Below, piece after piece: positions 1 through 12,903 of a stretch of 24,989 nucleotides of DNA. The notes below the pieces were generated by a model. That model was not told the DNA's origin. It worked only from the letters and a program-made list of their open reading frames with translations, and did no database searches. The stretch is taken from the IMG/VR virus record IMGVR_UViG_2619619133_000007. One strand, written 5' to 3'. Source of the DNA: a virus (Duplodnaviria; Heunggongvirae; Uroviricota; Caudoviricetes). The first letter of the stretch is position 1; each line of letters opens with the position of its first letter. Position numbers and translations under genes: made by a program.

Positions 1-1284
1 TTACTTCTTCGCCTCTGCAACCACTTTACTACCCACGCCGCGGTTATTGTATTCCCACATGCGGTTGTAGTTAGTGTCATTCAGATTGCGCTGTATTTCG
101 TCGTTATCATCTACGCTGCCGGTATTACCCGCAAACGGACGATTAGAGATCACCGCATCGGCCCACGGTTTAGCCGTGTTAAAACCTTCGTTGATGGCGC
201 TATCACGGATCACCACCTGACCGTTGGTATTGGCATCAACATCCAGCGAGCGGCCCAGTTGCGCCACACCATCACCGAAAGCATTGAAACGGCTGTTTAC
301 GGCGAGGAAACCGTAGTAAATGTTGGACAGCGTAGCCGGTGCAAACACATACGCTTCTTGCTGAGTACGTGAGTTCACCACGCGGAATTCGGTGTTATCG
401 AACACCACTGCGCCGCGACCAGAAACGATATCCACATCCCCTTCAATGTAGCTGTTGGTCACCAGCGTACGCGGCTGACGATTTGTTTCCAGACGGTTCT
501 GCACACCGCTGTTGGTGACAAAGAAGGTGTTCTGACGACCGAGAATGTTAACGTTGTTAATCTGTACCTGGTCACCATCAGTACGCAGTGCCACCGCCGG
601 ATGGTTACCTGCATCTACGCTATCGCCCAGCGTGTTTTCGATGGTCAGATTTTGCAGTTGCAGGCCATTGTTTTGTGACCAGAAGACCGCAGAGCAGAGA
701 ACACCGATACTGTCGCTGCGTTTGCTCTGGCAGCTATCGTACATATACCACGCTGGTTTACCTGGCATATATTTGCCGCGCGGGTTGACGTCGTGACGCC
801 AGTCGGCAGGGCTCATGCCACCATCAAGGGAAAGCCCAATCTTCACATCAATCGGTTTTTCACCTGTACCGTACAGAGTAATTCCACCCGGAGCGGCAGG
901 GACATATACCGTTCCCTGATACTCACCAGGCATCACGGCAATATACTGGCGCTTGTTGGTACGCTTGATAATTGCCGCATCTACCGCCGCCTGAATCGTG
1001 GTATGCGTTACACCTTGAGTGCCCGCCGGGCCGACAACAAAGTCAGGTTGCGCAGGCAGGGTAATCGGGGAAGGATTCCACGCTGCAGCACCTGGTGTCA
1101 GGGATGCAAAATAGTGTTGAGCATCGAAATTCTGCGCTTCTTTTGCCGACAGAATCGGGCGAGAAGAGGTACCAGGCGCGGTTTGATCAGAAGGACGTTG
1201 ATCGGGCGGGGTTGAGCTACAGGCGGTCAGCGTCACGCCAAAAGCCAATGCCAGCGCCAGACGGGAAACTGAAAATGTGTTCAC
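1..1284 (-). CDS. ybhC: Host outer-membrane lipoprotein YbhC (pectinesterase-family), complete, GTG start
   Basis: 427-aa ORF with signal peptide and lipobox (LTAC); matches remembered E. coli YbhC in length and sequence; lies immediately outside attL. Confidence 0.85.
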   Translation of the reverse strand: MNTFSVSRLALALAFGVTLTACSSTPPDQRPSDQTAPGTSSRPILSAKEAQNFDAQHYFASLTPGAAAWNPSPITLPAQPDFVVGPAGTQGVTHTTIQAAVDAAIIKRTNKRQYIAVMPGEYQGTVYVPAAPGGITLYGTGEKPIDVKIGLSLDGGMSPADWRHDVNPRGKYMPGKPAWYMYDSCQSKRSDSIGVLCSAVFWSQNNGLQLQNLTIENTLGDSVDAGNHPAVALRTDGDQVQINNVNILGRQNTFFVTNSGVQNRLETNRQPRTLVTNSYIEGDVDIVSGRGAVVFDNTEFRVVNSRTQQEAYVFAPATLSNIYYGFLAVNSRFNAFGDGVAQLGRSLDVDANTNGQVVIRDSAINEGFNTAKPWADAVISNRPFAGNTGSVDDNDEIQRNLNDTNYNRMWEYNNRGVGSKVVAEAKK

Positions 1285-1425: not shown

Positions 1426-2489
1426 ATTTCAATTTTGTCCCACTCCCTGCCTCTGTCATCACGATACTGTGATGCCATGGTGTCCGACTTATGCCCGAGA
1501 AGATGTTGAGCAAACTTATCGCTTATCTGCTTCTCATAGAGTCTTGCAGACAAACTGCGCAACTCGTGAAAGGTAGGCGGATCCCCTTCGAAGGAAAGAC
1601 CTGATGCTTTTCGTGCGCGCATAAAATACCTTGATACTGTGCCGGATGAAAGCGGTTCACGACGAGTAGATGCAATTATGGTTTCTCCGCCAAGAATCTC
1701 TTTGCATTTATCAAGTGTTTCCTTCATTGATATCCCGAGAGCATCAACATGCAATGTTGTTGGGATGGCAATTTTTACGCCTGTTTTGCTTTGCTCGACA
1801 TAAAGATATCCATCTACGATATCAGACCACTTCATTTCGCATAAATCACCAACTCGTTGCCCGGTAACAACAGCCAGTTCCATTGCAAGTCTGAGCCAAC
1901 ATGGTGATGATTCTGCTGCTTGATAAATTTTCAGGTATTCGTCAGCCGTAAGTCTTGATCTCCTTACCTCTGATTTTGCTGCGCGAGTGGCAGCGACAGG
2001 GTTTGTTGTTATATGGCCTTCAGCTATTGCCTCTCGGAATGCATCGCTCAGTGTTGATCTGATTAACTTGGCTGACGCCGCCTTGCCCTCGTCTATGTAT
2101 CCATTGAGCATTGCCGCAATTTCTTTTGTGGTGATGTCTTCAAGTGGAGCATCAGGCAGACCCCTCCTTATTGCTTTAATTTTGCTCATGTAATTTATGA
2201 GTGTCTTCTGCTTGATTCCTCTGCTGGCCAGGATTTTTTCGTAGCGATCAAGCCATGAATGTAACGTAACGGAATTATCACTGTTGATTCTCGCTGTCAG
2301 AGGCTTGTGTTTGTGTCCTGAAAATAACTCAATGTTGGCCTGTATGGCTTCAGTGATTGCGATTCGCCTGTCTCTGCCTAATCCAAACTCTTTACCCGTC
2401 CTTGGGTCCCTGTAGCAGTAATATCCATTGTTTCTTATATAAAGGTTAGGGGGTAAATCCCGGCGCTCATGACTTCGCCTTCTTCCCAT
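1419..2489 (-). CDS. int: Lambda integrase (tyrosine recombinase)
   Basis: 356-aa ORF essentially identical to remembered lambda Int (MGRRRSHERRDLPPNLYIRNNGYYCYRDPRTGKEFGLGRDRRIA...). Confidence 0.95.
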   Translation of the reverse strand: MGRRRSHERRDLPPNLYIRNNGYYCYRDPRTGKEFGLGRDRRIAITEAIQANIELFSGHKHKPLTARINSDNSVTLHSWLDRYEKILASRGIKQKTLINYMSKIKAIRRGLPDAPLEDITTKEIAAMLNGYIDEGKAASAKLIRSTLSDAFREAIAEGHITTNPVAATRAAKSEVRRSRLTADEYLKIYQAAESSPCWLRLAMELAVVTGQRVGDLCEMKWSDIVDGYLYVEQSKTGVKIAIPTTLHVDALGISMKETLDKCKEILGGETIIASTRREPLSSGTVSRYFMRARKASGLSFEGDPPTFHELRSLSARLYEKQISDKFAQHLLGHKSDTMASQYRDDRGREWDKIEIK

Positions 2490-2685
2490 TTCTGATCCTC
2501 TTCAAAAGGCTACCTGTTACTGGTCGATTTAAGTCAACCTTTACCGCTGATTCGTGGAACAGATACTCTCTTCCATCCTTAACCGGAGGAGGGAATATCC
2601 TGCACTCGCGTACCCATCGACGAACTGTTTCAAGGCTTCTTGGGCGTCGCTGGCGTGCGTTCCACTCCTGAAGTGTCAAGTACAT
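2467..2685 (-). CDS. xis: Excisionase
   Basis: 72-aa ORF matching lambda Xis (MYLTLQEWNARQRRPRSLETVRRWVRE...); overlaps int start as in lambda. Confidence 0.95.
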   Translation of the reverse strand: MYLTLQEWNARQRRPRSLETVRRWVRECRIFPPPVKDGREYLFHESAVKVDLNRPVTGSLLKRIRNGKKAKS

Positions 2686-2710
2686 CGCAAAGTCTCCGCA
2701 ATTACACGCA

Positions 2711-2732
2711 AGAAAAAACCGCCATCAGGCGG
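2711..2732 (-). terminator. Putative intrinsic terminator (minus strand): CCGCC/GGCGG hairpin followed by T6
   Basis: Stem CCGCC-ATCA-GGCGG at 2719-2732 with A6 on plus strand (T6 on minus) at 2713-2718; overlaps stop of the 55-aa ORF. Confidence 0.5.
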
Positions 2733-2892
2733 CTTGGTGTTCTTTCAGTTCTTCAATTCGAATATTGGTTACGTCTGCATGTGCTATCTGCGCCCACAGC
2801 ATCCAGTGGTCATAGCAGTCGCTGATGTTCTCGGCTTCGATAACTCTGTTGAATGGTTCTCCATTCCATTCCCCTGTGCCTCGGAAGTGCAT
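2725..2892 (-). CDS. Small hypothetical protein (55 aa), lambda-like ORF immediately upstream of xis
   Basis: Hand-translated minus-strand ORF MHFRGTGEWNGEPFNRVIEAENISDCYDHWMLWAQIAHADVTNIRIEELKEHQAA, below the 60-aa cutoff of the ORF track; spacing to xis (40 nt) matches what I recall for a 55-aa lambda ORF. Confidence 0.45.
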   Translation of the reverse strand: MHFRGTGEWNGEPFNRVIEAENISDCYDHWMLWAQIAHADVTNIRIEELKEHQAA

Positions 2893-2930
2893 TTATCATC
2901 CCAAAAAAACAAACCCCGCCGTAGCGAGTT

Positions 2931-2963
2931 CAGATAAAAGAAATCCTCGTCAGTGCGAGGATG
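2931..2963 (-). terminator. Putative intrinsic terminator (minus strand) at boundary of accessory cassette
   Basis: 7-bp stem ATCCTCG/CGAGGAT (2944-2963) with T-rich run on minus strand (revcomp of 2931-2943). Confidence 0.4.
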
Positions 2964-3134
2964 CTGTTCATTGCTGCTATACACTTTTTTGCTCTCAACG
3001 TAAGCGGTAGCCCATTCTGTTGGGTTGGTGCAGTTGCTTTTAGGAAATGCTATTTACCCCTTAAATGTCGGCTGAAAGAGCTAAAATCCATGCAAAAAAT
3101 TTACGCAATTTTGTGTATTATTGTGCAGTAAGTA

Positions 3135-3737
3135 ATGAGCTATTTTCTGCGCAAAAAATGGATGGTAAATTTGTCCGGGTCAGGAAAAATTTTATGGGCG
3201 CTAAACATGAAAAAAGATTCGTATCCTTATTTGATTTGCATGACAGTTTCAGGGCTGATCTTTATTTTCCTTTTCTTCTGGTGGCGGGCAGATATCTACA
3301 GGGTCACGTTTCTTAATCAGAGTATATCCCACTATTACATTCTGTTTAGCATGGGAATAGCTTTTCTGTTATCTCTGTTTTGGGTTAAGAAGGGGATAGT
3401 AAAACAAAGAGGCTGGAAGAGTCTGTCAGCATACCTTAAGGTTTATGCAGGGATGTGCATATTTGCTGGATTTTTTCTGATTATACCCCTTACGACACTA
3501 ACTTATTTTTTGCCTGGAGAGACATCGTCTTATGTTGCACCGTATCGGTATACTTCCGGTAGTTCAAAAAGTTGTTCTGGAGCTGAGGTGGATGACCCCG
3601 ATCTACATGAGAATATTCGCATTTGCTATCCGTATGGCAATTATGAGTACGATAATATTATCTATGTTGAAAAGAAAATTAATATATTAGGTGCGGTAGT
3701 GACATATGCACAGACCGCGCGTGATGATACTGAATGA
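3135..3737 (+). CDS. Hypothetical membrane protein (about 3 predicted TM helices plus ~80-aa C-terminal soluble region); accessory (moron-like) gene; start codon uncertain (in-frame ATGs at 3135, 3162, 3207)
   Basis: 200-aa ORF on strand opposite to the flanking early-left genes, in a markedly AT-rich segment; hydrophobic stretches LICMTVSGLIFIFLFFWW, ILFSMGIAFLLSLFWV, VYAGMCIFAGFFLIIPLTTL; followed by hairpin terminator; no family recognised. Confidence 0.55.
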   Translation: MSYFLRKKWMVNLSGSGKILWALNMKKDSYPYLICMTVSGLIFIFLFFWWRADIYRVTFLNQSISHYYILFSMGIAFLLSLFWVKKGIVKQRGWKSLSAYLKVYAGMCIFAGFFLIIPLTTLTYFLPGETSSYVAPYRYTSGSSKSCSGAEVDDPDLHENIRICYPYGNYEYDNIIYVEKKINILGAVVTYAQTARDDTE

Positions 3738-3771
3738 TATAGTATATAGCGGGCAAGTTTTAGTTAATTTA

Positions 3772-3809
3772 TCGAGGTAATATAATTTACCTCGACTCGT
3801 TTGTTCTGG
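3772..3809 (+). terminator. Putative intrinsic terminator for the accessory gene
   Basis: Perfect 9-bp stem TCGAGGTAA/TTACCTCGA (3772-3795) followed by CTCGTTTGTTCT. Confidence 0.5.
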
Positions 3810-3947
3810 TATTAATATTTCGCTTTACGACCGATTTTTATCTGATGATATCATGCGGTTTTCATATACTGACTTACTGTCTTTTCTCCGTTAGCGATTT
3901 TCTCCTGCTCAGCGATGATTTTATCTTTGGCTTCTAGTTAATTTCGC

Positions 3948-4169
3948 TCACTTCGAACCTCTCTGTTTACTGATAAGCTCCAGATCCTCCTGGCAACTTG
4001 CACAAGTCCGACAACCCTGAACGACCAGGCGTCTTCGTTCATCTATCGGATCGCCACACTCACAACAATGAGTGGCAGATATAGCCTGGTGGTTCAGGCG
4101 GCGCATTTTTATTGCTGTGTTGCGCTGTAATTCTTCAATTTCTGATGCTGAATCAATGATGTCTGCCAT
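3948..4169 (-). CDS. TraR/DksA-family C4 zinc-finger protein (lambda Orf73-like)
   Basis: 73-aa ORF with CxxC...CxxC motif (CCECGDPIDERRRLVVQGCRTCASC), characteristic of TraR/DksA family. Confidence 0.75.
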   Translation of the reverse strand: MADIIDSASEIEELQRNTAIKMRRLNHQAISATHCCECGDPIDERRRLVVQGCRTCASCQEDLELISKQRGSK

Positions 4170-4267
4170 CTTTCATTAATCCCTGAATTGTTGGTTAATA
4201 CGCTTGAGGGTGAATGCGAATAATAAAAAAGGAGCCTGTAGCTCCATGATGATTTTGTTTTTCATGC

Positions 4268-4453
4268 TCACCGTTCCTTAAAGACGCCGTTTAACATGCC
4301 GATCGCCAGGCTTAAATGAGTCGGTGTGAATCCCATCAGCGTTACCGTTTCGCGGTGCTTCTTCAGTACGCTACGGCAAATGTCATCGACGTTTTTATCC
4401 GGAAACTGCTGTCTGGCTTTTTTGATTTCAGAATTAGCCTGACGGGCAATACT
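4268..4453 (-). CDS. Small early-left protein, lambda orf61-like (start at internal Met MTHQQENAL...)
   Basis: ORF track 4268..4549; conserved lambda-like sequence and 186-nt length from internal ATG. Confidence 0.6.
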   Translation of the reverse strand, partial: SIARQANSEIKKARQQFPDKNVDDICRSVLKKHRETVTLMGFTPTHLSLAIGMLNGVFKER

Positions 4454-4559
4454 GCGAAGGGCGTTTTCTTGCTGATGTGTCATTGAACAAGTCCCATGTC
4501 GGCAAGCATAAGCACACAGAATATGAAGCCCGCTGCCAGAAAAATGCATTCAGTGGTTG

Positions 4560-4751
4560 TCATACCTGGTCTCTCTCATCTGCTTCTGCTTTCGCCACCA
4601 TCATTTCCAGCTTTTGTGAAAGGGATGCGGCTAACGTATGAAATTCTTCGTCTGTTTCTACTGGTATTGGCACAAACCTGACTCCAATTTGAGCGAGGCT
4701 ATGTGCCATCTCAATGCTCGTTCTTAACTCAACAGGAGATGCTTTGTGCAT
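4560..4751 (-). CDS. Small early-left protein, lambda orf63-like
   Basis: 63-aa ORF; position and length match lambda PL-operon ORF between orf61 and orf60a. Confidence 0.6.
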   Translation of the reverse strand: MHKASPVELRTSIEMAHSLAQIGVRFVPIPVETDEEFHTLAASLSQKLEMMVAKAEADERDQV

Positions 4752-4906
4752 ACAGCTCCCCGTTTATTATTTATCTCCTCAGCCAGCCGCTGTGCTTTCA
4801 GGGGATTTCGGGTAACAGAAAGGCCGGGAAATACCCAGCCTCGCTTTGTAACGGAGTAGACGAAAGTGATCGCGCCTACCCGGATATTATCGTGAGGATG
4901 CTTCAT
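4724..4906 (-). CDS. Small early-left protein, lambda orf60a-like
   Basis: ORF 4724..4912; second Met gives the 60-aa lambda-length product overlapping exo stop by 4 nt. Confidence 0.6.
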
Positions 4907-5583
4907 CGCCATTGCTCCCCAAATACAAAACCAATTTCAGCCAGTGCCTCGTCCATTTTTTCGATGAACTCCGGCACCATCTCGTCAAAACTCGCCATGT
5001 ACTTTTCATCCCGCTCAACCACGACATAATGCAGGCCTTCACGCTTCATACGCGGGTCATAGTTGGCAAAGTACCAGGCATCTTTTCGCGTCACCCACAT
5101 GCTGTACTGCACCTGGGCCATGTAAGCCGACTTTATGGCCTCGAAACCACCGAGCCGGAACTTCATGAAATCCCGGGAGGTAAACGGGCATTTCAGCTCA
5201 AGGCCATTGCCGTCACTGCATAAACCATCGGGAGAGCAGGCGGTGCGCATACTTTCGTCGCGATAGATGATCGGGGATTCAATAACATTTACGCCGGAAG
5301 TGAACTCAAACAGGGTTCTGGCGTCGTTCTCGTACTGTTTTCCCCAGGCCAGCGCTTTAGCGTTAACTTCCGGAGCCACACCGGTGCAAACCTCAGCCAG
5401 CAGGGTGTGGAAGTAGGACATTTTCATGTCAGGCCACTTCTTTCCTGATCGGGGCTTTGCTATCACGTTGTGAACTTCTGAAGCGGTGATGACGCCGAGC
5501 CGTAATTTGTGCCATGCATCATCCCCCTGTTCGACAGCTCTCACGTCGATCCCGGTACGCTGCAGGATAATGTCCGGTGTCAT
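4903..5583 (-). CDS. exo: Lambda exonuclease (Red-alpha)
   Basis: 226-aa ORF near-identical to remembered lambda Exo. Confidence 0.95.
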
Positions 5584-6365
5584 GCTGCCACCTTCTGCTC
5601 AGTGGCTTTCTGTTTCAGGAATCCAAGAGCTTTCACTGCTTCGGCCTGTGTCAGTTCTGACGATGCGCGAATGTCGCGGCGAAATATCTGGGAACAGAGC
5701 GGCAATAAGTCGTCATCCCATGTTTTATCCAGGGCGATCAGCAGAGTGTTAATCTCCTGCATGGTTTCATCGTTAACCGGAGTGATGTCGCGTTCTGGCT
5801 GACGTTCTGCAGTGTATGCAGTATTTTCGACAATGCGCTCGGCTTCATCCTTGTCATAGATACCAGCAAATCCGAAGGCCAGACGGGCACACTGAATCAT
5901 GGCTTTATGCCGTAACATCCGTTTGGGATGCGACTGCCACGGCCCCGTGATTTCTCTGCCTTCGCGAGTTTTGAATGGTTCGCGGCGGCATTCATCCATC
6001 CATTCGGTAACGCAGATCGGATGATTACGGTCCTTGCGGTAAATCCGGCATGTACAGGATTCATTGTTCTGCTCAAAGTCCATGCCATCAAACTGCTGGT
6101 TTTCATTGATGATGCGGGACCAGCCATCAACGCCCACCACCGGAACGATGCCGTTCTGCTTATCAGGGAAGGCGTAAATTTCTTTCGTCCACGGATTAAG
6201 GCCGTACTGGTTGGCGACGATCAACAATGCGATGAACTGCGCATCGCTGGCATCACCTTTAAATGCCGTCTGGCGAAGAGTGGTGATCAGTTCCTGTGGG
6301 TCGACAGAATCCATGCCGACACGTTCAGCCAGCTTCCCTGCCAGCGTTGCGAGTGCTGTACTCAT
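5580..6365 (-). CDS. bet: Bet single-strand annealing protein (Red-beta)
   Basis: 261-aa ORF matching lambda Bet ([59 protein letters not shown]...). Confidence 0.95.
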
Positions 6366-6370
6366 CCGTT

Positions 6371-6667
6371 TTATACCTCTGAATCAATATCAACCTGGTG
6401 GTGAGCAATGGTTTCAACCATGTACTGGATGTGTTCTGCCATGCGCTCCTGAAACTCAACATCGTCATCAAACGCACGGGTAATGGCTTTTTTGCTGGCC
6501 CCGTGGCGTTGCAAATGATCGATGCATAGCGATTCAAACAGGTGCTGGGGCAGGCCTTTTTCCATGTCGTCTGCCAGTTCTGCCTCTTTCTCTTCACGGG
6601 CGATCTGCTGGTAGTGACGCGCCCAGCTCTGAGCCTCAAGACGATCCTGAATGTAATAAGCGTTCAT
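6371..6667 (-). CDS. gam: Gam, RecBCD inhibitor (98-aa short form only)
   Basis: Matches lambda GamS; good RBS (AGGAGG); upstream in-frame region has no start codon before a stop, so no long GamL form. Confidence 0.9.
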
Positions 6668-6742: not shown

Positions 6743-7033
6743 TTAGTGATTCAGGCCGTTACCGCGTCCGTCGAGAAAAACTTCCACGAGCAAATCACGG
6801 GTATAAGTGCGCTCGATGCCGCGATGCAGATAAAGCCGTCCGCGTAAATTAGCTGATGCAGTCCAGGTACCATCTTTGTGTTTGACCAGCATTCCTGGCA
6901 TGACCGCACCTCGATTAACGGTCTGCGTTCCATAATGTTGATGAACCATAAAAACTCCTGCCCGTAAGCTGGGCTGCTGAACATATAGAGACTTCTGCGC
7001 GTATTCAGGCGGTGGATGGCCGCCGGTTGTCAT
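6743..7033 (-). CDS. Hypothetical protein at the kil position; possibly Kil/KilR-like host cell-division inhibitor; start uncertain (internal Met at about 6949 possible)
   Basis: 96-aa ORF first downstream of the leftward early promoter; motif [20 protein letters not shown] resembles my recollection of prophage KilR-type proteins; an overlapping alternative frame (6751..6984) cannot be excluded. Confidence 0.4.
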
Positions 7034-7226
7034 AACTAAGCCGCCTCGTTGAAGCGACTAAGGTATGAAATGTTGAGTTAATTTCAGCTGGTCACACCGA
7101 CGTTCACGCGTCCGTTTCACCCCTCGCACTCCCCGAAGCCTGCTGAAATTCAAACTGCGGATCTAAGCGGTCATCGCAACGGTGAATCAGGTAGTTGCCG
7201 TATCGTTGTGTTGTTGCGATGAACTT

Positions 7227-7256
7227 ATTTAAAACTATAGTTGTTTTATCGTCAAC
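7227..7256 (-). promoter_or_regulatory. Putative leftward early promoter (PL-like) with overlapping operator repeats
   Basis: On minus strand -35 TTGACG (plus 7251-7256) and -10 TTAAAT (plus 7227-7232); overlapping AAAACAACTATAG and AACAAC/GTTGTT repeats shared with the rightward promoter region. Confidence 0.5.
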
Positions 7257-7392
7257 AACAAAAGTTGTTTTATTGGTTGTTTTAGATATAACTGGTTGTA
7301 TTTAGGATGGATTTATTTTGTGACTTGAATCGCATAGCGATAACTGAAGCGAGGTTATGGTGGTTTTTTTAACGGTGTGTGTGATGAGGGGA

Positions 7393-7423
7393 GGGCAAAA
7401 GAAAACCCGGCACGGTGACCGGG
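7393..7423 (-). terminator. Putative intrinsic terminator downstream of the repressor gene
   Basis: Stem CCCGG-CACGGTGA-CCGGG with TTTTCTTTT on the minus strand. Confidence 0.5.
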
Positions 7424-7544
7424 ATTCTTACGCCGTTAGGTAAAGATATTATTGCGGTGGCTTAATATTACTACCTAGAGCAAAGATAGGAATTAGTTCT
7501 TTACTGAATGAGCACAATGCCCAGTTGATAATTTTTAATTGGTA

Positions 7545-8234
7545 CTACCCATGCTTCCTATATGTCTGCGGCATGCTCCCAATAACCTTACCGAAGATGA
7601 ACACCCGGTTCATCTCGTCTTTCTCGATCGGGTCCCACGGTGAGTAGCTTTTGTTATCAGAGATGACCAGCAGCTTATCCTTCATCATTTGCAGGCGCTT
7701 TACATGGGCTGTGTCGTCGTACAGAAACGCATAGATACCATCACCGTCGAAAGATTTAACTGTGATATCAACGAACAGTAGATCACCTGGTTCGATCGTT
7801 CCTGACATGCTGTCACCACGCACGTTAATGATGCGGATATTTTCCGCCTTCCTACCATCGAACATGTGACGAGCATCGTCAAACGAGTACTCAACCGAGC
7901 GTAGAACTTCTACAAACTCACGGTTGATGACTCCCGGCCCAGCACTGACTTCTATATCAAGAACGTCAATCTTGAAGTATTTGGAATGGCTGACAGTTGA
8001 TTGTATTGGTTGCACTGTACTGTCTGACATATTTCCAACGCCAGAAGATAACCATTCTGCGCGCACACCCAAAGCGTTCGCGATCTCCACGATTTTAGTT
8101 GTTTGATTAGCTTTCCCTGTTTCGATTTTCTGAATAGCAGCCTGGCTAACCCCGACCAAATCCCCAAGCGCCTTTTGTGTAAGGCCTCGCGCTAATCTGG
8201 CTTCTTTAAGTCTTTCTGAGAGTGTTGTTTTCAT
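7545..8234 (-). CDS. CI-type prophage repressor (N-terminal XRE-type HTH, C-terminal S24 LexA-like peptidase domain); not lambda immunity
   Basis: Start taken at internal Met MKTTLSERLKEARLARGLTQKALGDLVG; Ala-Gly cleavage site and GDSM serine motif typical of RecA-stimulated autocleaving repressors; divergent from the adjacent cro-like gene. Confidence 0.8.
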   Translation of the reverse strand: MKTTLSERLKEARLARGLTQKALGDLVGVSQAAIQKIETGKANQTTKIVEIANALGVRAEWLSSGVGNMSDSTVQPIQSTVSHSKYFKIDVLDIEVSAGPGVINREFVEVLRSVEYSFDDARHMFDGRKAENIRIINVRGDSMSGTIEPGDLLFVDITVKSFDGDGIYAFLYDDTAHVKRLQMMKDKLLVISDNKSYSPWDPIEKDEMNRVFIFGKVIGSMPQTYRKHG

Positions 8235-8275
8235 AGTCCAAATGTACAACCAAGGTTTTATTCCATCAAACGAAA

Positions 8276-8311
8276 ATGGTTGTTGACTAAAAACAACCAT
8301 AGTTTTAATCT
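8276..8311 (+). promoter_or_regulatory. Putative rightward early promoter (PR-like) and operator: inverted repeat ATGGTTGTT-N7-AACAACCAT overlapping -35 TTGACT
   Basis: Perfect 9-bp inverted repeat at 8276-8300; -35 TTGACT at 8283-8288, candidate -10 TAATCT at 8306-8311; cro-like gene starts 8339 with GGAGG RBS. Confidence 0.55.
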
Positions 8312-8638: not shown

Positions 8639-9178
8639 ATGCAACCACTTACATACCAACAGACTAGCGGATTTAGCCCGACTGCGGTGATAAATCGTTC
8701 TCAAACAAAACAGGTGCCAGGCCACGAAAAAATCCGTGATGCCGTCCGCGCCTGGTCGGCTGTAGATAATCAGGATGTCGTTGCCACACTCATTGTGAAT
8801 GAGTATCGGGAGCAGGGCGGCGGCACCATCGATTTCCCTGATGATGTCAGCCGTGCACGCCAGAAGCTGTTCCGCTTCCTCGATAACAAATTCGATTCTG
8901 AAAAATACCGAAATAACGTGCGTGAACTGACCCCGGCAATTCTGGCGGTACTACCGCTGGAATATCGCGGTTACCTGGTTGAGCAGGATAGCTTCATGGC
9001 TAGGTTGGCTGAAATGGAAAAGGAACTCAGTGAGGCAAAACAGGCTGTCATTCTCAACGCACCACGCCACCAGAAACTGAAGGAAATTAGTGAAGGTATT
9101 GTGTCGATGTTTCGTGTGGACCCAGATCTGGCTGGTCCATTGATGGCGATGGTTACTACCATGCTGGGGGCGATATGA
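8639..9178 (+). CDS. YdaT-family protein (proposed CII functional analogue in Rac-type immunity regions), putative
   Basis: 179-aa ORF directly after cro-like gene with strong RBS (AAGGAG); segments EYREQGGG and TPAILAVLP resemble what I recall of E. coli YdaT; family assignment from memory only. Confidence 0.45.
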   Translation: MQPLTYQQTSGFSPTAVINRSQTKQVPGHEKIRDAVRAWSAVDNQDVVATLIVNEYREQGGGTIDFPDDVSRARQKLFRFLDNKFDSEKYRNNVRELTPAILAVLPLEYRGYLVEQDSFMARLAEMEKELSEAKQAVILNAPRHQKLKEISEGIVSMFRVDPDLAGPLMAMVTTMLGAI

Positions 9179-9264
9179 CAGGTTCAGAAATGGCGAAAGC
9201 CGGTCTGCTGGAACAGAACCGACTTTCAGGTGCAAATCGTAACACACTCATTGCGGGAGGAATT

Positions 9265-10194
9265 ATGGCAAACACTGCTGAGATATTCAATTTTCCAGTG
9301 CCGGATGCGGCACAAAAGGAGCCGCGCGTGGCAGATCTCGATGATGGTTATACGCGCATTGCAAATGAGTTGCTGGAAGCTGTGATGCTGACCGGATTAA
9401 CACAGCACCAGCTTCTGGTCTTTCTGGCTGTCATGCGCAAAACATATGGCTTTAATAAAAGACTGGATTGGGTGAGCAACGAGCAACTTTCCGAATTGAC
9501 CGGGATATTGCCGCACAAGTGTTCTGCTGCAAAAAGCGTTCTGGTAAAGCGTGGGATTCTTATTCAGAGCGGGCGGAATATCGGCATTAATAATGTGGTC
9601 AGTGAATGGTCAACATTACCCGAATCAGGTAAGAAAAATAAAGTTTACCTGAAAGAGGTAAATTTACCTGAATCAGGTAAGAAAAGTTTACCCAAATCAG
9701 GTAAAGGCGTTTACCCGAATCAGGTAAACACAAAAGACAAACTAACAAAAGACAATATAAAACCTTTTTCGTCCGAGAATTCTGGCGAATCCTCTGACCA
9801 GCCAGAAAACGATCTTCCTGTGGTGAAACCGGATGCTGCAATTCAGAGCGGCAGCAAGTGGGGGACAGCAGAAGACCTGACCGCCGCAGAGTGGATGTTT
9901 GACATGGTGAAGACTATCGCACCATCAGCCAGAAAACCGAATTTTGCTGGGTGGGCTAACGATATCCGCCTGATGCGTGAACGTGACGGACGTAACCACC
10001 GCGACATGTGCGTGCTGTTCCGCTGGGCATGCCAGGACAACTTCTGGTCCGGTAACGTGCTGAGCCCGGCCAAACTCCGCGATAAGTGGACCCAACTCGA
10101 AATCAACCGTAACAAGCAACAGGCAGGCGTGATAGCCAGCAAACCAAAACTCGACCTGACGAACACTGACTGGATTTACGGGGTGGAGCTATGA
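9265..10194 (+). CDS. O: Replication initiator O (lambda O-like; divergent N-terminal DNA-binding domain, lambda-identical C-terminal domain)
   Basis: Start at ATG 9265 with GGGAGG RBS; C-terminal ~110 aa match lambda O (SGSKWGTAEDLTAAEWMFDMVKTIAPSARKPNFAGWANDIRLMRERDG...); contains ori iterons. Confidence 0.9.
   Translation: MANTAEIFNFPVPDAAQKEPRVADLDDGYTRIANELLEAVMLTGLTQHQLLVFLAVMRKTYGFNKRLDWVSNEQLSELTGILPHKCSAAKSVLVKRGILIQSGRNIGINNVVSEWSTLPESGKKNKVYLKEVNLPESGKKSLPKSGKGVYPNQVNTKDKLTKDNIKPFSSENSGESSDQPENDLPVVKPDAAIQSGSKWGTAEDLTAAEWMFDMVKTIAPSARKPNFAGWANDIRLMRERDGRNHRDMCVLFRWACQDNFWSGNVLSPAKLRDKWTQLEINRNKQQAGVIASKPKLDLTNTDWIYGVEL
9616..9728. repeat. Origin iterons inside O: five ~19-bp repeats TTTACC(C/T)(G/A)A(A/T)(T/A)(C/G)AGGTAA(A/G), followed by an AT-rich stretch (9729-9770)
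   Basis: Repeats read directly at 9616-9633, 9644-9662, 9663-9681, 9688-9706, 9710-9728; each is an internal inverted repeat; arrangement is analogous to lambda ori but the sequence differs. Confidence 0.85.
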
Positions 10195-10300
10195 AAAACA
10201 TCGCCGCACAGATGGTTAACTTTGACCGTGAGCAGATGCGTCGGATCGCCAACAACATGCCGGAACAGTACGACGAAAAGCCGCAGGTACAACAGGTACA
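10191..10300 (+). pseudogene. P: Truncated replication gene P (first ~36 codons only)
   Basis: [36 protein letters not shown] matches lambda P N-terminus, start overlaps O stop (ATGA); similarity ends near 10298 and the reading frame terminates shortly after. Confidence 0.85.
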
Positions 10301-10630
10301 GGAAAAGACATCATGCTCGGTAAAACGTATACCAAAGCAGAATGCAAAGCACTCTTGAATAAAGACCTTGCCACTGTCGCCAGACAAATTAACCCGTACA
10401 TCAAAGTCGATATACCGGAAACAACGCGCGGCGCTCTTTACTCATTCGTTTACAACGTGGGTGCTGGCAATTTCAGAACATCGACGCTTCTTCGCAAAAT
10501 AAACCAGGGCGATATCAAAGGCGCATGTGATCAGCTACGTCGCTGGACATATGCTGGCGGTAAGCAATGGAAAGGTCTCATGACTCGTCGTGAGATTGAG
10601 CGTGAAATCTGTTTGTGGGGTCAGCAATGA
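10301..10630 (+). pseudogene. N-terminally truncated phage lysozyme (T4-lysozyme-type endolysin, RrrD-like), C-terminal ~105 aa only
   Basis: ORF 10313..10630 matches the C-terminal part of DLP12-type lysozyme as I remember it; the catalytic N-terminal region is absent because of the P/R deletion junction. Confidence 0.75.
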
Positions 10631-11088
10631 ACAGAGTAACCGCGATTATCTCCGCTCTGGTTATCTGCATCATCGTCTGCCTGTCATGGGCTGTTAATCA
10701 TTACCGTGATAACGCCATTACCTACAAAGCCCAGCGCGACAAAAATGCCAGAGAACTGAAGCTGGCGAACGCGGCAATTACTGACATGCAGATGCGTCAG
10801 CGTGATGTTGCTGCGCTCGATGCAAAATACACGAAGGAGTTAGCTGATGCGAAAGCTGAAAATGATGCTCTGCGTGATGATGTTGCCGCTGGTCGTCGTC
10901 GGTTGCACATCAAAGCAGTCTGTCAGTCAGTGCGTGAAGCCACCACCGCCTCCGGCGTGGATAATGCAGCCTCCCCCCGACTGGCAGACACCGCTGAACG
11001 GGATTATTTCACCCTCAGAGAGAGGCTGATCACTATGCAAAAACAACTGGAAGGAACCCAGAAGTATATTAATGAGCAGTGCAGATAG
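10627..11088 (+). CDS. Rz: Rz inner-membrane spanin (i-spanin)
   Basis: 153-aa ORF from ATG 10627 (overlapping lysozyme stop), N-terminal TM helix, coiled-coil body; matches lambda/DLP12 Rz. Confidence 0.9.
10847..11029 (+). CDS. Rz1: Rz1 outer-membrane lipoprotein spanin (o-spanin), embedded in +1 frame of Rz
   Basis: 60-aa ORF with lipobox LVVVGC and proline-rich region, fully nested within Rz. Confidence 0.9.
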
Positions 11089-11119
11089 AGCTGCCCATAT
11101 CGATGGGCAACTCATGCAA

Positions 11120-11413
11120 TTATTGTGAGCAATACACACGCGCTTCCAGCGGAGTATAAATGCCTAAAGTAATAAAACCGAGAAATCCATTTACGAATGT
11201 TTGCTGGGTTTCTGTTTTAACAACATTTTCTGCGCCGCCACAAATTTGGGCTGCATCAACAGTTTTCTCCTGTCCAATTCCCGAAACGAAGAAATGATGG
11301 GTGATGGTTTCCTTTGGTGTTACTGCTGTCGGTTTGTTTCCAACAGTAAACGTCTGTTGAGCACATCCTGTAATAAGCATTGCCAGAGCGGCAGAAAACA
11401 ACATTTTTTTCAT
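11120..11413 (-). CDS. bor: Bor lipoprotein (serum-resistance-associated lysogenic conversion gene)
   Basis: Start at internal Met MKKMLFSAALAMLITGC (lipobox); 97 aa matching lambda Bor. Confidence 0.9.
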   Translation of the reverse strand: MKKMLFSAALAMLITGCAQQTFTVGNKPTAVTPKETITHHFFVSGIGQEKTVDAAQICGGAENVVKTETQQTFVNGFLGFITLGIYTPLEARVYCSQ

Positions 11414-11774
11414 CTTATTATCCTGCATTGTTAAAAACGGCAGAATCCTATGTGACAACAATTAAACGATAGTTAAATGGATTGATGAAAATTAAAACTA
11501 TATAGGTGGATGCTCAGCCTATTGGAGGAGGGGGGGGCACTCAGAATCCTGTGGAATGAAATAAACCGCTCTTTCTGTCCATTACCCTTTTAGCTGCGCT
11601 GTATCGTCGCCGTATTCCCGCATTAACCATGACCGTAGCCCGACGGGGAATTCCTTCTGCGTGAGTGTGCGGGAATAATCAAAAACGATGCACACCGGGT
11701 TTTACTGTGCTGACAGACGCAGGGTTACCCTCATAGTCGCTTTTCCGGTGCGATGGTGGAAGAAACCGGGATGT

Positions 11775-11969
11775 TTATTCATCATCACTCTGGATTGATG
11801 TATATGCTCTCTTTTCTGACGTTAGTCTCCGACGGCAGGCTTCAATGACCCAGGCTGAGAAATTCCCGGACCCTTTTTGCTCAAGAGCGATGTTAATTTG
11901 TTCAATCATTTGGTTAGGAAAGCGGATGTTGCGGGTTGTTGTTCTGCGGGTTCTGTTCTTCGTTGACAT
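11775..11969 (-). CDS. Small putative ribbon-helix-helix DNA-binding protein (YlcI/DUF3950-like)
   Basis: 64-aa ORF MSTKNRTRRTTTRNIRFPNQMIEQINIALEQKGSGNFSAWVIEACRRRL; family from memory. Confidence 0.55.
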   Translation of the reverse strand: MSTKNRTRRTTTRNIRFPNQMIEQINIALEQKGSGNFSAWVIEACRRRLTSEKRAYTSIQSDDE

Positions 11970-12168
11970 GAGGTTGTCCCGTATTCAGTGTCGCTGATTT
12001 GTATTGTCTGAAGTTGTTTTTACGTTAAGTTGATGCAGATCAATTAATATGATACCTGCGTCATAATTGATTATTTGACGTGGTTTGATGGCGTAGATGC
12101 ACGTTGTGACATGCAGATGATAATTATTATCATTTTGCGGGTCCTTTCCGGCGATCCGACAGGTTACG

Positions 12169-12180
12169 GGGCGGCGACCT
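12169..12180. other. cos: cosN cohesive-end sequence GGGCGGCGACCT (whole cos region about 12100-12360, cosQ upstream, cosB downstream)
   Basis: Sequence identical to the lambda genome termini: ...GGTTACG / GGGCGGCGACCTCGCGGGTTTTCGCTATTTATGAAAATTTTCCGG... Confidence 0.9.
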
Positions 12181-12357
12181 CGCGGGTTTTCGCTATTTAT
12201 GAAAATTTTCCGGTTTAAGGCATTTCCGTTCTTCTTCGTCGTAACTTAATGTTTTTATTTAAAATACCCCCTGAAAAGAAAGGAAACGACAGGTGCTGAA
12301 AACGAGCTTTTGGGCCTCTGTCGTTTCCTTTCTCTGTTTTTGGCCGTGGAATGAACA

Positions 12358-12877
12358 ATGGAAGTCAACAAAAAGCAGCTGGCTGACATTTTCGGTGCGA
12401 GTATCCGTACCATTCAGAACTGGCAGGAACAGGGAATGCCCGTTCTGCGAGGCGGTGGCAAGGGTAATGAGGTGCTTTATGATTCTGCCGCCGTCATAAG
12501 ATGGTATGCCGAAAGGGATGCTGAAATTGAGAACGAAAAGCTGCGCCGGGAAGTTGAAGAACTGCGGCAGGCCAGCGAGACAGATCTCCAGCCAGGGACT
12601 ATTGAGTACGAACGCCATCGACTTACGCGTGCGCAGGCCGACGCACAGGAGCTGAAAAATGCCAGAGACTCCGCTGAAGTGGTGGAAACCGCATTCTGTA
12701 CTTTCGTGCTGTCGCGGATCGCAGGTGAAATTGCCAGTATTCTCGACGGGATCCCCCTGTCGGTGCAGCGGCGTTTTCCGGAACTGGAAAACCGACATGT
12801 TGATTTCCTGAAACGGGATATCATCAAAGCCATGAACAAAGCAGCCGCGCTGGATGAACTGATACCGGGGTTGCTGA

Positions 12878-12903
<26 letters not shown>
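12358..12903 (+). CDS. nu1: Terminase small subunit Nu1
   Basis: 181-aa ORF matching lambda Nu1. Confidence 0.95.

Follow-up and report, generated by a model that had tools for sequence, protein, structure and literature searches.

The window that we analysed, a stretch of 24,989 nucleotides from a tailed-phage record of IMG/VR (IMGVR_UViG_2619619133_000007), contains a lambda-type prophage, and in it an AT-rich segment with a single gene for a small membrane protein. Sequence comparisons support well the view that this segment is a moron, i.e. an independently mobile promoter region, one gene and a hairpin, located in the exo-xis region of a 434-type lambdoid prophage. As judged by alignment, the protein is a true homologue, over its full length and with the same architecture, of the family listed as system 4 in Table S5B of Rousset et al. 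2022 (Cell Host Microbe), which occupies a defence hotspot of P2-like prophages. We propose that the cassette serves superinfection exclusion or envelope-level phage defence, a reading to which we assign a probability of roughly 0.45.

Positions 3070–3827 of the window recur as one block in a different phage family and at a different accessory locus: blastn aligns the block at 76.5% identity over 761 base pairs (bp) to L071 and L075 (compared loci are cited by label where they must be told apart) and at 71–72% to L005, L076 and L083, and in all five P2-like prophages it lies between the portal gene Q and gpA. The shared block comprises 137 bp upstream of the open reading frame (ORF), the ORF itself and 90 bp downstream with the hairpin. 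The Salmonella relatives (59–71% identity) likewise lie in P2-like prophages, between the portal gene Q and the replication gene A. Among 13 checked IMG/VR relatives at 47–86% identity, 12 are accompanied by P2-type marker genes of several P2 lineages, and at such loci the gene stands between Q and gpA wherever both flanks are present. The exception, L080 (47% identity), has the gene at the margin of a small integrative element, beside chromosomal mntR; its stretch 3284–6510 includes an integrase gene (3284–4282) and an ORF (4381–5502) that is HNH-like by eye, a third kind of mobile context.

Two other properties expected of a moron point in the same direction. The gene is an extra one, absent at the same position in the related phages lambda and 933W, the latter having other leftward ORFs there. 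Its composition differs from its surroundings: G+C is 0.381 for 2989–3947 and 0.373 for 3070–3827, compared with 0.463 in the left flank, 0.502 in the right flank and 0.503 in the whole window, and the mobile copies in general (0.37–0.42) are AT-rich relative to their flanks (0.51–0.56) in both phage families, a contrast that speaks for a foreign origin. A conserved extended −10 and the hairpin move with the gene, the promoter being one that a scan does not call and the hairpin having a weak T tract. The first-pass annotation had described a strongly AT-rich segment with the architecture of a prophage moron; the contrast of ~0.38 with 0.46–0.50 and the recurrence of the unit at 76% DNA identity in another phage family bear out both statements. 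In Salmonella-type P2-like prophages, genes for products of 81 and 119 amino acids (aa) precede the homologue on the same strand (L004 5284–5888; also L006–L009 and L077), and the 119-aa product has a DxDG motif, a weak LNS2/HAD-like match and no PADLOC match. Neither of these two genes occurs at E. coli-type P2 loci or in lambdoids, so that neither is an obligatory partner.

The gpA–gpQ interval is a published defence hotspot of P2-like prophages, in which P2 itself carries old and tin, and most of the cargo tested from it proved antiviral (PMC9122126). Unannotated hotspot cargo is predicted to be antiviral. Table S5B of Rousset et al. lists, at rank 4 and with 470 occurrences, a single-gene unannotated occupant labelled '3 TM'. 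BLASTP aligns this protein with the window protein at 51% identity over 168 of 176 aa (E 2e-56). The two share their length, three transmembrane (TM) helices, the motifs CSGAxVDDPDL and ICYPxGxY and the state of a solitary gene; they differ in phage family and in site (gpA–gpQ near cos versus lambdoid exo-xis), and the listed occupant is unnamed and given no domain. Intermediates at 59–79% protein identity occur in P2-like prophages, the closest of them (78–79%) at the same P2 locus. The small DxDG protein encoded upstream of the gene in Salmonella P2 loci had suggested a link to the validated anti-T7 system 'Hydrolase + 3TM' of Rousset et al. This link was discarded: the 3TM protein of that system is unrelated in sequence, and the small DxDG protein has no PADLOC match and a weak LNS2 match only and is missing from lambdoids and E. 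coli-type P2 loci.

On the lambdoid side, the segment is 98.4% identical to that of phage 434, 99.4% to that of mEp332 and 98.5% to that of 2B8, and among 50,697 phage records the protein is encoded by these three only. The 434 genome announcement assigns it no function (PMC9119081), the gene being annotated as 'putative membrane protein' and nothing more. All loci of at least 97% identity for which flanking sequence was obtained (IMG/VR scan and tblastn with marker genes) are lambdoid, with the gene next to TraR, exo and bet; one locus of this class, L069, ends at the gene and shows no flank. The TraR-like gene adjoins at 95–100% identity in every lambdoid locus whose sequence runs past the gene, and orf55 and xis lie on the other side wherever that side is present. 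The gene was found in 915 of 5,426 complete E. coli genomes (17%), always on the chromosome, O157:H7 and O104:H4 among them.

Two of the carriers are decayed prophages. In O157:H7 Sakai the gene is ECs_0804 of prophage Sp3 (L018 11198–16002) and is intact, while int and bet are annotated as pseudogenes. In the window (9175–12903), O (9175–10194) is followed almost directly by Rz (10615–11088) and then by Nu1 (12358–12903), with no P, nin, Q, holin or endolysin ORFs between them; the prophage is thus a deletion derivative, and because the block from P to endolysin is lost, it is not viable as a phage. The membrane-protein cassette is intact despite this loss.

Public annotations of the gene already use three start codons, and our family alignment adds a fourth, at 3207. 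Annotated starts differ between ATG 3135 (200 aa; RefSeq and mEp332) and TTG 3171 (434 record), and members of PHROG 1416, which covers the last 88 aa, start at an internal Met. Homologues at 42–78% identity from Salmonella, Enterobacter, Klebsiella and Cedecea are 169–180 aa long and all begin at the Met of 3207; in L071 and L073, the closest P2-borne relatives, the supposed N-terminal extension is closed by an in-frame TGA at a position where the window has TGG; and a conserved extended −10 (3163–3171) lies downstream of 3135, within that extension. For these three reasons we consider ATG 3207 the most likely true start, giving 176 aa, and the extension from 3135 probably untranslated; the 200-aa product that had first been read from 3135 is replaced by the shorter form.

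The frame itself belongs to a real coding gene, because dN/dS against the relatives is 0.09–0.17, with synonymous sites near saturation and the lowest values (0.07–0.10) in the C-terminal domain. There are 30 invariant residues across 21 sequences, and 49 lambdoid copies, representing 19 alleles, contain no internal stop or frameshift. These observations bear on the possibility that the ORF has no current function and is hitch-hiking or decaying, kept by linkage to the TraR-like gene. That linkage is indeed constant in lambdoids, and the variant codons of the lambdoid clade (14 non-synonymous versus 10 synonymous) suggest mild short-range constraint; however, the low dN/dS across lineages, the invariant residues, the absence of stops and frameshifts and the conservation of the non-coding sequence upstream all make a gene without function highly improbable.

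In lambda, the slot that runs from the 55-aa ORF to the conserved genes that follow is taken by ea8.5 and ea22, and the segment lies in this slot. Our first reading had put it there, between the 55-aa ORF and a TraR-like gene and with its gene opposite to early-left transcription, and the ORF list, the TIGR02419 match of the neighbour and the lambda map agree with that placement. From int through gam all prophage genes are on the minus strand, and the segment is the sole exception: its one long ORF is on the plus strand, in the frame for which the dN/dS values were obtained, and the minus strand of 2985–3947 has no ORF of at least 40 aa in the ORF list. A gene on the other strand is thereby ruled out. 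An Rfam scan of window positions 2400–4400 returned no RNA element.

Hydropathy predicts three TM segments in the 176-aa form (residues 7–27, 40–60 and 77–101). Lysine and arginine number eight in the N terminus and loop 2 together versus two in loop 1, and by the positive-inside rule this distribution would place the N terminus in the cytoplasm and the C-terminal domain in the periplasm. AlphaFold2, supplied with an alignment of 21 sequences, gave a predicted local distance difference test score of 86 over the whole protein and of 90 when the C-terminal domain was modelled alone; the full model combines three helices with a five-stranded beta domain and has a short strand in loop 1. Two invariant cysteines in this predicted periplasmic barrel would fit an oxidising compartment, and the barrel is probably disulfide-bonded. 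Hydropathy, alignment and AlphaFold2 thus recover the architecture sketched in the first-pass annotation, about three TM helices and a Cys-containing C-terminal domain, the latter at ~75 aa.

The impression that the protein matches no recognised family was also correct. Scans of the protein and its neighbours against Pfam, NCBIfam and PADLOC gave no family for the membrane protein, and PHROG 1416, which matches residues 113–200 of the 200-aa ORF (E 7e-51, 90-position profile), is labelled 'unknown function' and seems to have been built from ORFs called at the internal Met. An exhaustive hidden Markov model (HMM) search of 1.84 billion representative proteins returned just 62 clusters, all of the same architecture and ~170 aa, so far as the matches in the giant repetitive proteins P0124 and P0131, which look spurious, are set aside. 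PDB sequence searches found no relative, and a structure search with the full-length model gave helical noise only. Small membrane-anchored barrels resembling the oligonucleotide/oligosaccharide-binding (OB) fold were compared, i.e. DUF1093/YxeA (PDB 3npp and 2k5q) and the short NfeD/YuaF-type proteins, which we take to belong among them; no significant sequence or structure match was found to NfeD, DUF1093 or OB-fold membrane-anchored proteins. This is a narrow family without a characterised member. Two simple identities were rejected: a lipoprotein, as the cysteine at residue 11 of the 176-aa form follows Ile and is not conserved in the alignment, and a holin, as the C-terminal 75 aa form a folded domain and the gene lies away from any lysis genes.

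The architecture also bears on single-protein abortive infection, in which the product would sense infection at the envelope and kill the cell, by permeabilising or depolarising its inner membrane, before the phage cycle is complete. TM proteins of hotspot systems are commonly taken as suicide effectors (PMC9122126), the gene occupies the P2 hotspot as a single gene, and the cassette has a putative regulatory region of its own. However, three TM helices with a folded periplasmic barrel are not a known pore-former architecture, neither lambdoids nor P2 loci of the E. coli type provide a partner sensor gene, and a gene that is intact in 17% of E. coli genomes and resident in other genera is ill-suited to a hair-trigger toxin. 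We consider such a suicide function improbable.

Upstream of the gene we found a putative control region with two components. The first is a candidate activator- or regulator-binding array: relatives have three or four clean copies of ATTGTGCAnn at an exact 10-bp spacing (L076 5884–5923; L005 5894–5926), 40–70 bp upstream of the conserved extended −10, and the window has three degenerate copies, a pattern that in the window alone is not above chance. The second is a putative core promoter, with a −35-like TTTTCT (3143–3148), a 17-bp spacer and the extended −10 TGGTAAATT (3163–3171), from which transcription is predicted to start near 3178. Positions 3139–3174 are the best-conserved non-coding block, with one mismatch to L071 in the pairwise alignment; TTTT (3143–3146) and TG-TA (3163–3167) are invariant across ten loci; and the upstream 137 bp are 75% identical to L071, compared with 62% at third codon positions.

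The 434 annotators marked 3111–3124, i.e. two of the repeats, as a CII-consensus TTGY-N6-TTGY site. We doubt that a CII-dependent promoter lies there, because the same repeats occur in P2-like prophages, which to our knowledge lack CII. The annotated site is nevertheless one of the points for a developmental role, in which the gene would modulate the lysis-lysogeny decision or induction as ea22, ea8.5, orf60a, orf61 and orf63 are reported to do; others are the location in the ea8.5/ea22 slot and the influence that exo-xis genes reportedly have on the lysogeny decision (PMC7093339). Yet the gene is transcribed against the early-left operon rather than within it, the same unit with its repeats occurs in P2-like prophages with a different regulatory circuit, and it is kept in prophages unable to develop; we judge a developmental role very unlikely. 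The slot of ea8.5 and ea22 themselves is the same, with the 55-aa ORF next to xis on one side and a TraR-like (orf73-type) gene on the other, where we presume lambda orf73 to be equivalent to TraR. Unlike the window gene, ea8.5 and ea22 run leftward in the pL operon and encode soluble proteins, with no homology to the window protein; they are reported to affect the choice between lysis and lysogeny, on the account given in PMC7093339.

Two hairpins had been taken to bracket the cassette as its own terminators. Both are present, but only the right one travels with the gene. The left one (2962–2943, minus strand) is followed by TTCTTTTATC and is annotated 't-L4' in the 434 record M60848, a sequence of the 1990s; a second minus-strand hairpin (2928–2915) is followed by GTTTGTTTTT. 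The 96-bp stretch 2893–2988 that holds them is 84–86% identical to Shiga toxin (Stx) phages without the cassette, and its 933W counterpart lies between two leftward ORFs, L0063 and L0064. Because this stretch is also found where the cassette is not, the left hairpin belongs to the phage backbone: on this comparison tL4 is a backbone terminator of early-left transcription and not a cassette boundary. The right hairpin (3772–3795) is followed by CTCGTTTGTT, a weak T tract, and has folding z-scores of −2.3 (plus strand) and −4.4 (minus strand); its stem is kept in L071 and L073, with a compensatory change from A-U to G-C in L073. The 56-aa ORF called at 2961–3131 (CPT_434_35 in 434) has its first codon within the tL4 hairpin and runs across the repeats and the promoter region. 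In P2-borne relatives the upstream homology starts only at ~3070 and no equivalent of this ORF is called; we regard it as probably an annotation artefact and not a gene.

The proposed function as superinfection exclusion or envelope-level defence can be put as a sequence of steps. The 176-aa product would insert in the inner membrane with its N terminus in the cytoplasm and three TM helices, and would expose the ~75-aa, probably disulfide-bonded beta-barrel to the periplasm, along with the conserved first loop. As the unit points against the early-left operon, which is repressed in the lysogen, the protein may be expected to be made in the lysogen and to be shut down by convergent transcription from pL after induction. 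The periplasmic module would then interfere with an incoming phage at the stage when its conduit for DNA across the periplasm and inner membrane is assembled or used, a block that may be likened to those of P22 SieA, HK97 gp15 and T4 Imm. Envelope-level exclusion or defence fits best because the product is a small membrane protein with a periplasmic module, because it is carried as accessory cargo by two unrelated families of temperate phages, in one of them at a defence hotspot, and because it is retained in decayed prophages.

P22 SieA is the best functional analogy: it is a protein of 162–164 aa with three predicted TM helices, located by experiment in the inner membrane, and it alone is sufficient to block DNA injection (PMC10883804). 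Both are accessory genes, SieA having its own promoter and being expressed from the prophage and the window gene having a putative promoter, and the proteins are similar in size, in known or predicted location and in the predicted number of TM helices; they differ in that the SieA motif lies near a C terminus predicted to be cytoplasmic, whereas the conserved C-terminal barrel of the window protein is predicted to be periplasmic. HK97 gp15 resembles the present case in that it is the moron of the textbooks: a supplementary gene, provided with a terminator, has been inserted in an operon and encodes a predicted inner-membrane exclusion protein. According to literature cited in PMC10883804 it acts on long-tailed phages. 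It differs in having 62 aa and no folded periplasmic domain and in its place in the tail operon, where it is oriented like the genes around it.

Several results weigh against exclusion or defence as the function. The first-pass annotation had suggested superinfection exclusion or another anti-phage or host-modulating role; the P2 hotspot context speaks for this, but no similarity to known exclusion proteins was found. Alignment of the family profile with P22 SieA by hhalign gave a probability of 0.1%, and the SieA motif FxRYPxEAxxFNK is absent from the alignment. PADLOC-DB v2.0.0 returned no match to the window protein with E as high as 10 allowed, and none to its Salmonella relatives with E as high as 1; a structural search of viral proteins (Foldseek, BFVD) returned nothing at E ≤0.001; and searches by accession, locus tag (ECs0804 and the EDL933 tags), protein id and topic retrieved no functional study and no experiment on the family. 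In Rousset et al. 2022 the sequence of the '3 TM' homologue is in the curated list only and not in the table of cloned systems, and P2 hotspots also hold non-defensive cargo. A generic sigma-70 promoter scan did not call the putative promoter, which is deduced from conservation only. The predicted periplasmic domain is strongly conserved (dN/dS 0.07–0.10), unlike the fast evolution often seen at phage-host interfaces. Finally, Klebsiella and Enterobacter homologues at 45% identity (L010 6001–6543 and L013 6001–6510) are solitary chromosomal genes of host-like G+C next to LysR-type regulators, with no phage or mobile-element genes within 6 kb (the L013 copy begins 17 bp beyond its LysR gene and runs in the same direction), and the family may have a housekeeping envelope role that phages merely borrowed.

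Some of these results favour lysogenic conversion of host envelope physiology instead, in which a borrowed enterobacterial membrane protein would confer tolerance to bacteriocins, stress or host factors or modulate a transporter. The solitary chromosomal homologues, the strong conservation of the predicted periplasmic domain, the resemblance of the 10-bp direct repeats to host-regulator sites and the lack of similarity to any PADLOC defence model would all suit such a role. The lambda morons bor and lom, which encode envelope proteins with host-directed roles, provide a precedent. Against it, the mobile copies are concentrated at the P2 gpA–gpQ interval, where most tested cargo is antiviral, and no known domain or motif ties the protein to transport, stress or immunity. 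We regard a role in envelope physiology as rather unlikely; abortive infection, a developmental role and the lack of any function are each less likely than either this role or exclusion and defence.

A more specific version of the exclusion reading, which we hold with some reserve, is that the protein is the founding member of a new single-gene envelope anti-phage family, whose barrel would block genome entry. Its gene would shuttle, with a regulator-responsive promoter, from one accessory site to the other, i.e. the old/tin hotspot of P2 and the exo-xis region of lambdoids, and may descend from an envelope gene resident in enterobacteria.

The window opens in chromosomal ybhC (1–1284, minus strand), which is followed by the lambda-type prophage at the lambda attachment site; beyond the TraR/DksA-type gene come DUF1382 and DUF1317 genes and then exo, bet and gam. 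The features of the region are collected in the table below. Two further stretches of the prophage were noted. Positions 7034–7544, between the ORF at 6743–7033 and the S24/HTH repressor gene (7545–8300), where the lambda counterpart has N and the rex genes, form ~510 bp of G+C 0.37–0.41 with strong positive GC skew and a longest ORF of at most 36 aa. Just right of the repressor/cro region, 8639–9178 is a gene of the YdaT_toxin family (Pfam E 8.5e-30).

Table. Coordinates of the moron, its gene and neighbouring features in the window
Feature	Position	Strand	Basis
int	1419–2489	−	ORF list, domain scans
xis	2467–2685	−	ORF list, domain scans
55-aa ORF, backbone, left flank; equals lambda p35 (lambdap35, same position) and 434 ORF55	2725–2892	−	M60848 annotation for 434 ORF55
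Backbone intergenic stretch with early-left terminators, outside the cassette	2893–2988	−	Terminator scan, folds, M60848
56-aa ORF, probable annotation artefact; 'putative membrane protein' in 434, hypothetical protein in mEp332	2961–3131	+	OL657226, PV340541
Variable AT-rich segment in place of lambda ea8.5 and ea22	2989–3947	+	Composition, homology limits to other lambdoids, lambda map
Mobile unit: upstream control region, gene, hairpin	3070–3827	+	Block shared with P2-like prophages
Three degenerate 10-bp direct repeats TTTACGCAAT, TTTGTGTATT, ATTGTGCAGT, candidate regulator-binding array	3101–3127	+	Clean copies in relatives
N-terminal 'extension' of the annotated 200-aa ORF, probably untranslated	3135–3206	+	Lacking in divergent homologues
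Putative core promoter	3139–3174	+	Conservation
Coding sequence of the 176-aa membrane protein (most likely start), stop included	3207–3737	+	Homologue alignment, dN/dS
Predicted TM1	about 3225–3287	+	Hydropathy
Predicted TM2	about 3324–3386	+	Hydropathy
Predicted TM3	about 3435–3509	+	Hydropathy
Predicted beta-barrel domain, ~75 aa	about 3513–3734	+	AlphaFold2
Invariant Cys codons (residues 123 and 140 of the 176-aa form)	3573–3575, 3624–3626	+	Homologue alignment
Hairpin with 9-bp stem after the stop codon, terminator-like, moves with the gene	3772–3795	+	Scan, folding
TraR/DksA-type zinc-finger gene, right flank	3948–4169	−	NCBIfam TIGR02419, E 1e-14

In conclusion, the cassette provides a clean natural example of a promoter-gene-hairpin unit exchanged between two unrelated families of temperate phages. 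If the proposed exclusion function is correct, such a function would have gone unrecognised in phage 434 and in one of every six E. coli genomes, those of O157:H7 and O104:H4 included, and the protein, present in 17% of complete genomes and the fourth-ranking occupant of the P2 hotspot, would be among the commonest unrecognised defence proteins in E. coli. Such a function would be relevant to the prediction of host range in phage therapy and would also concern the passage of phages through the periplasm and inner membrane, which in the case of long-tailed phages is still poorly understood.

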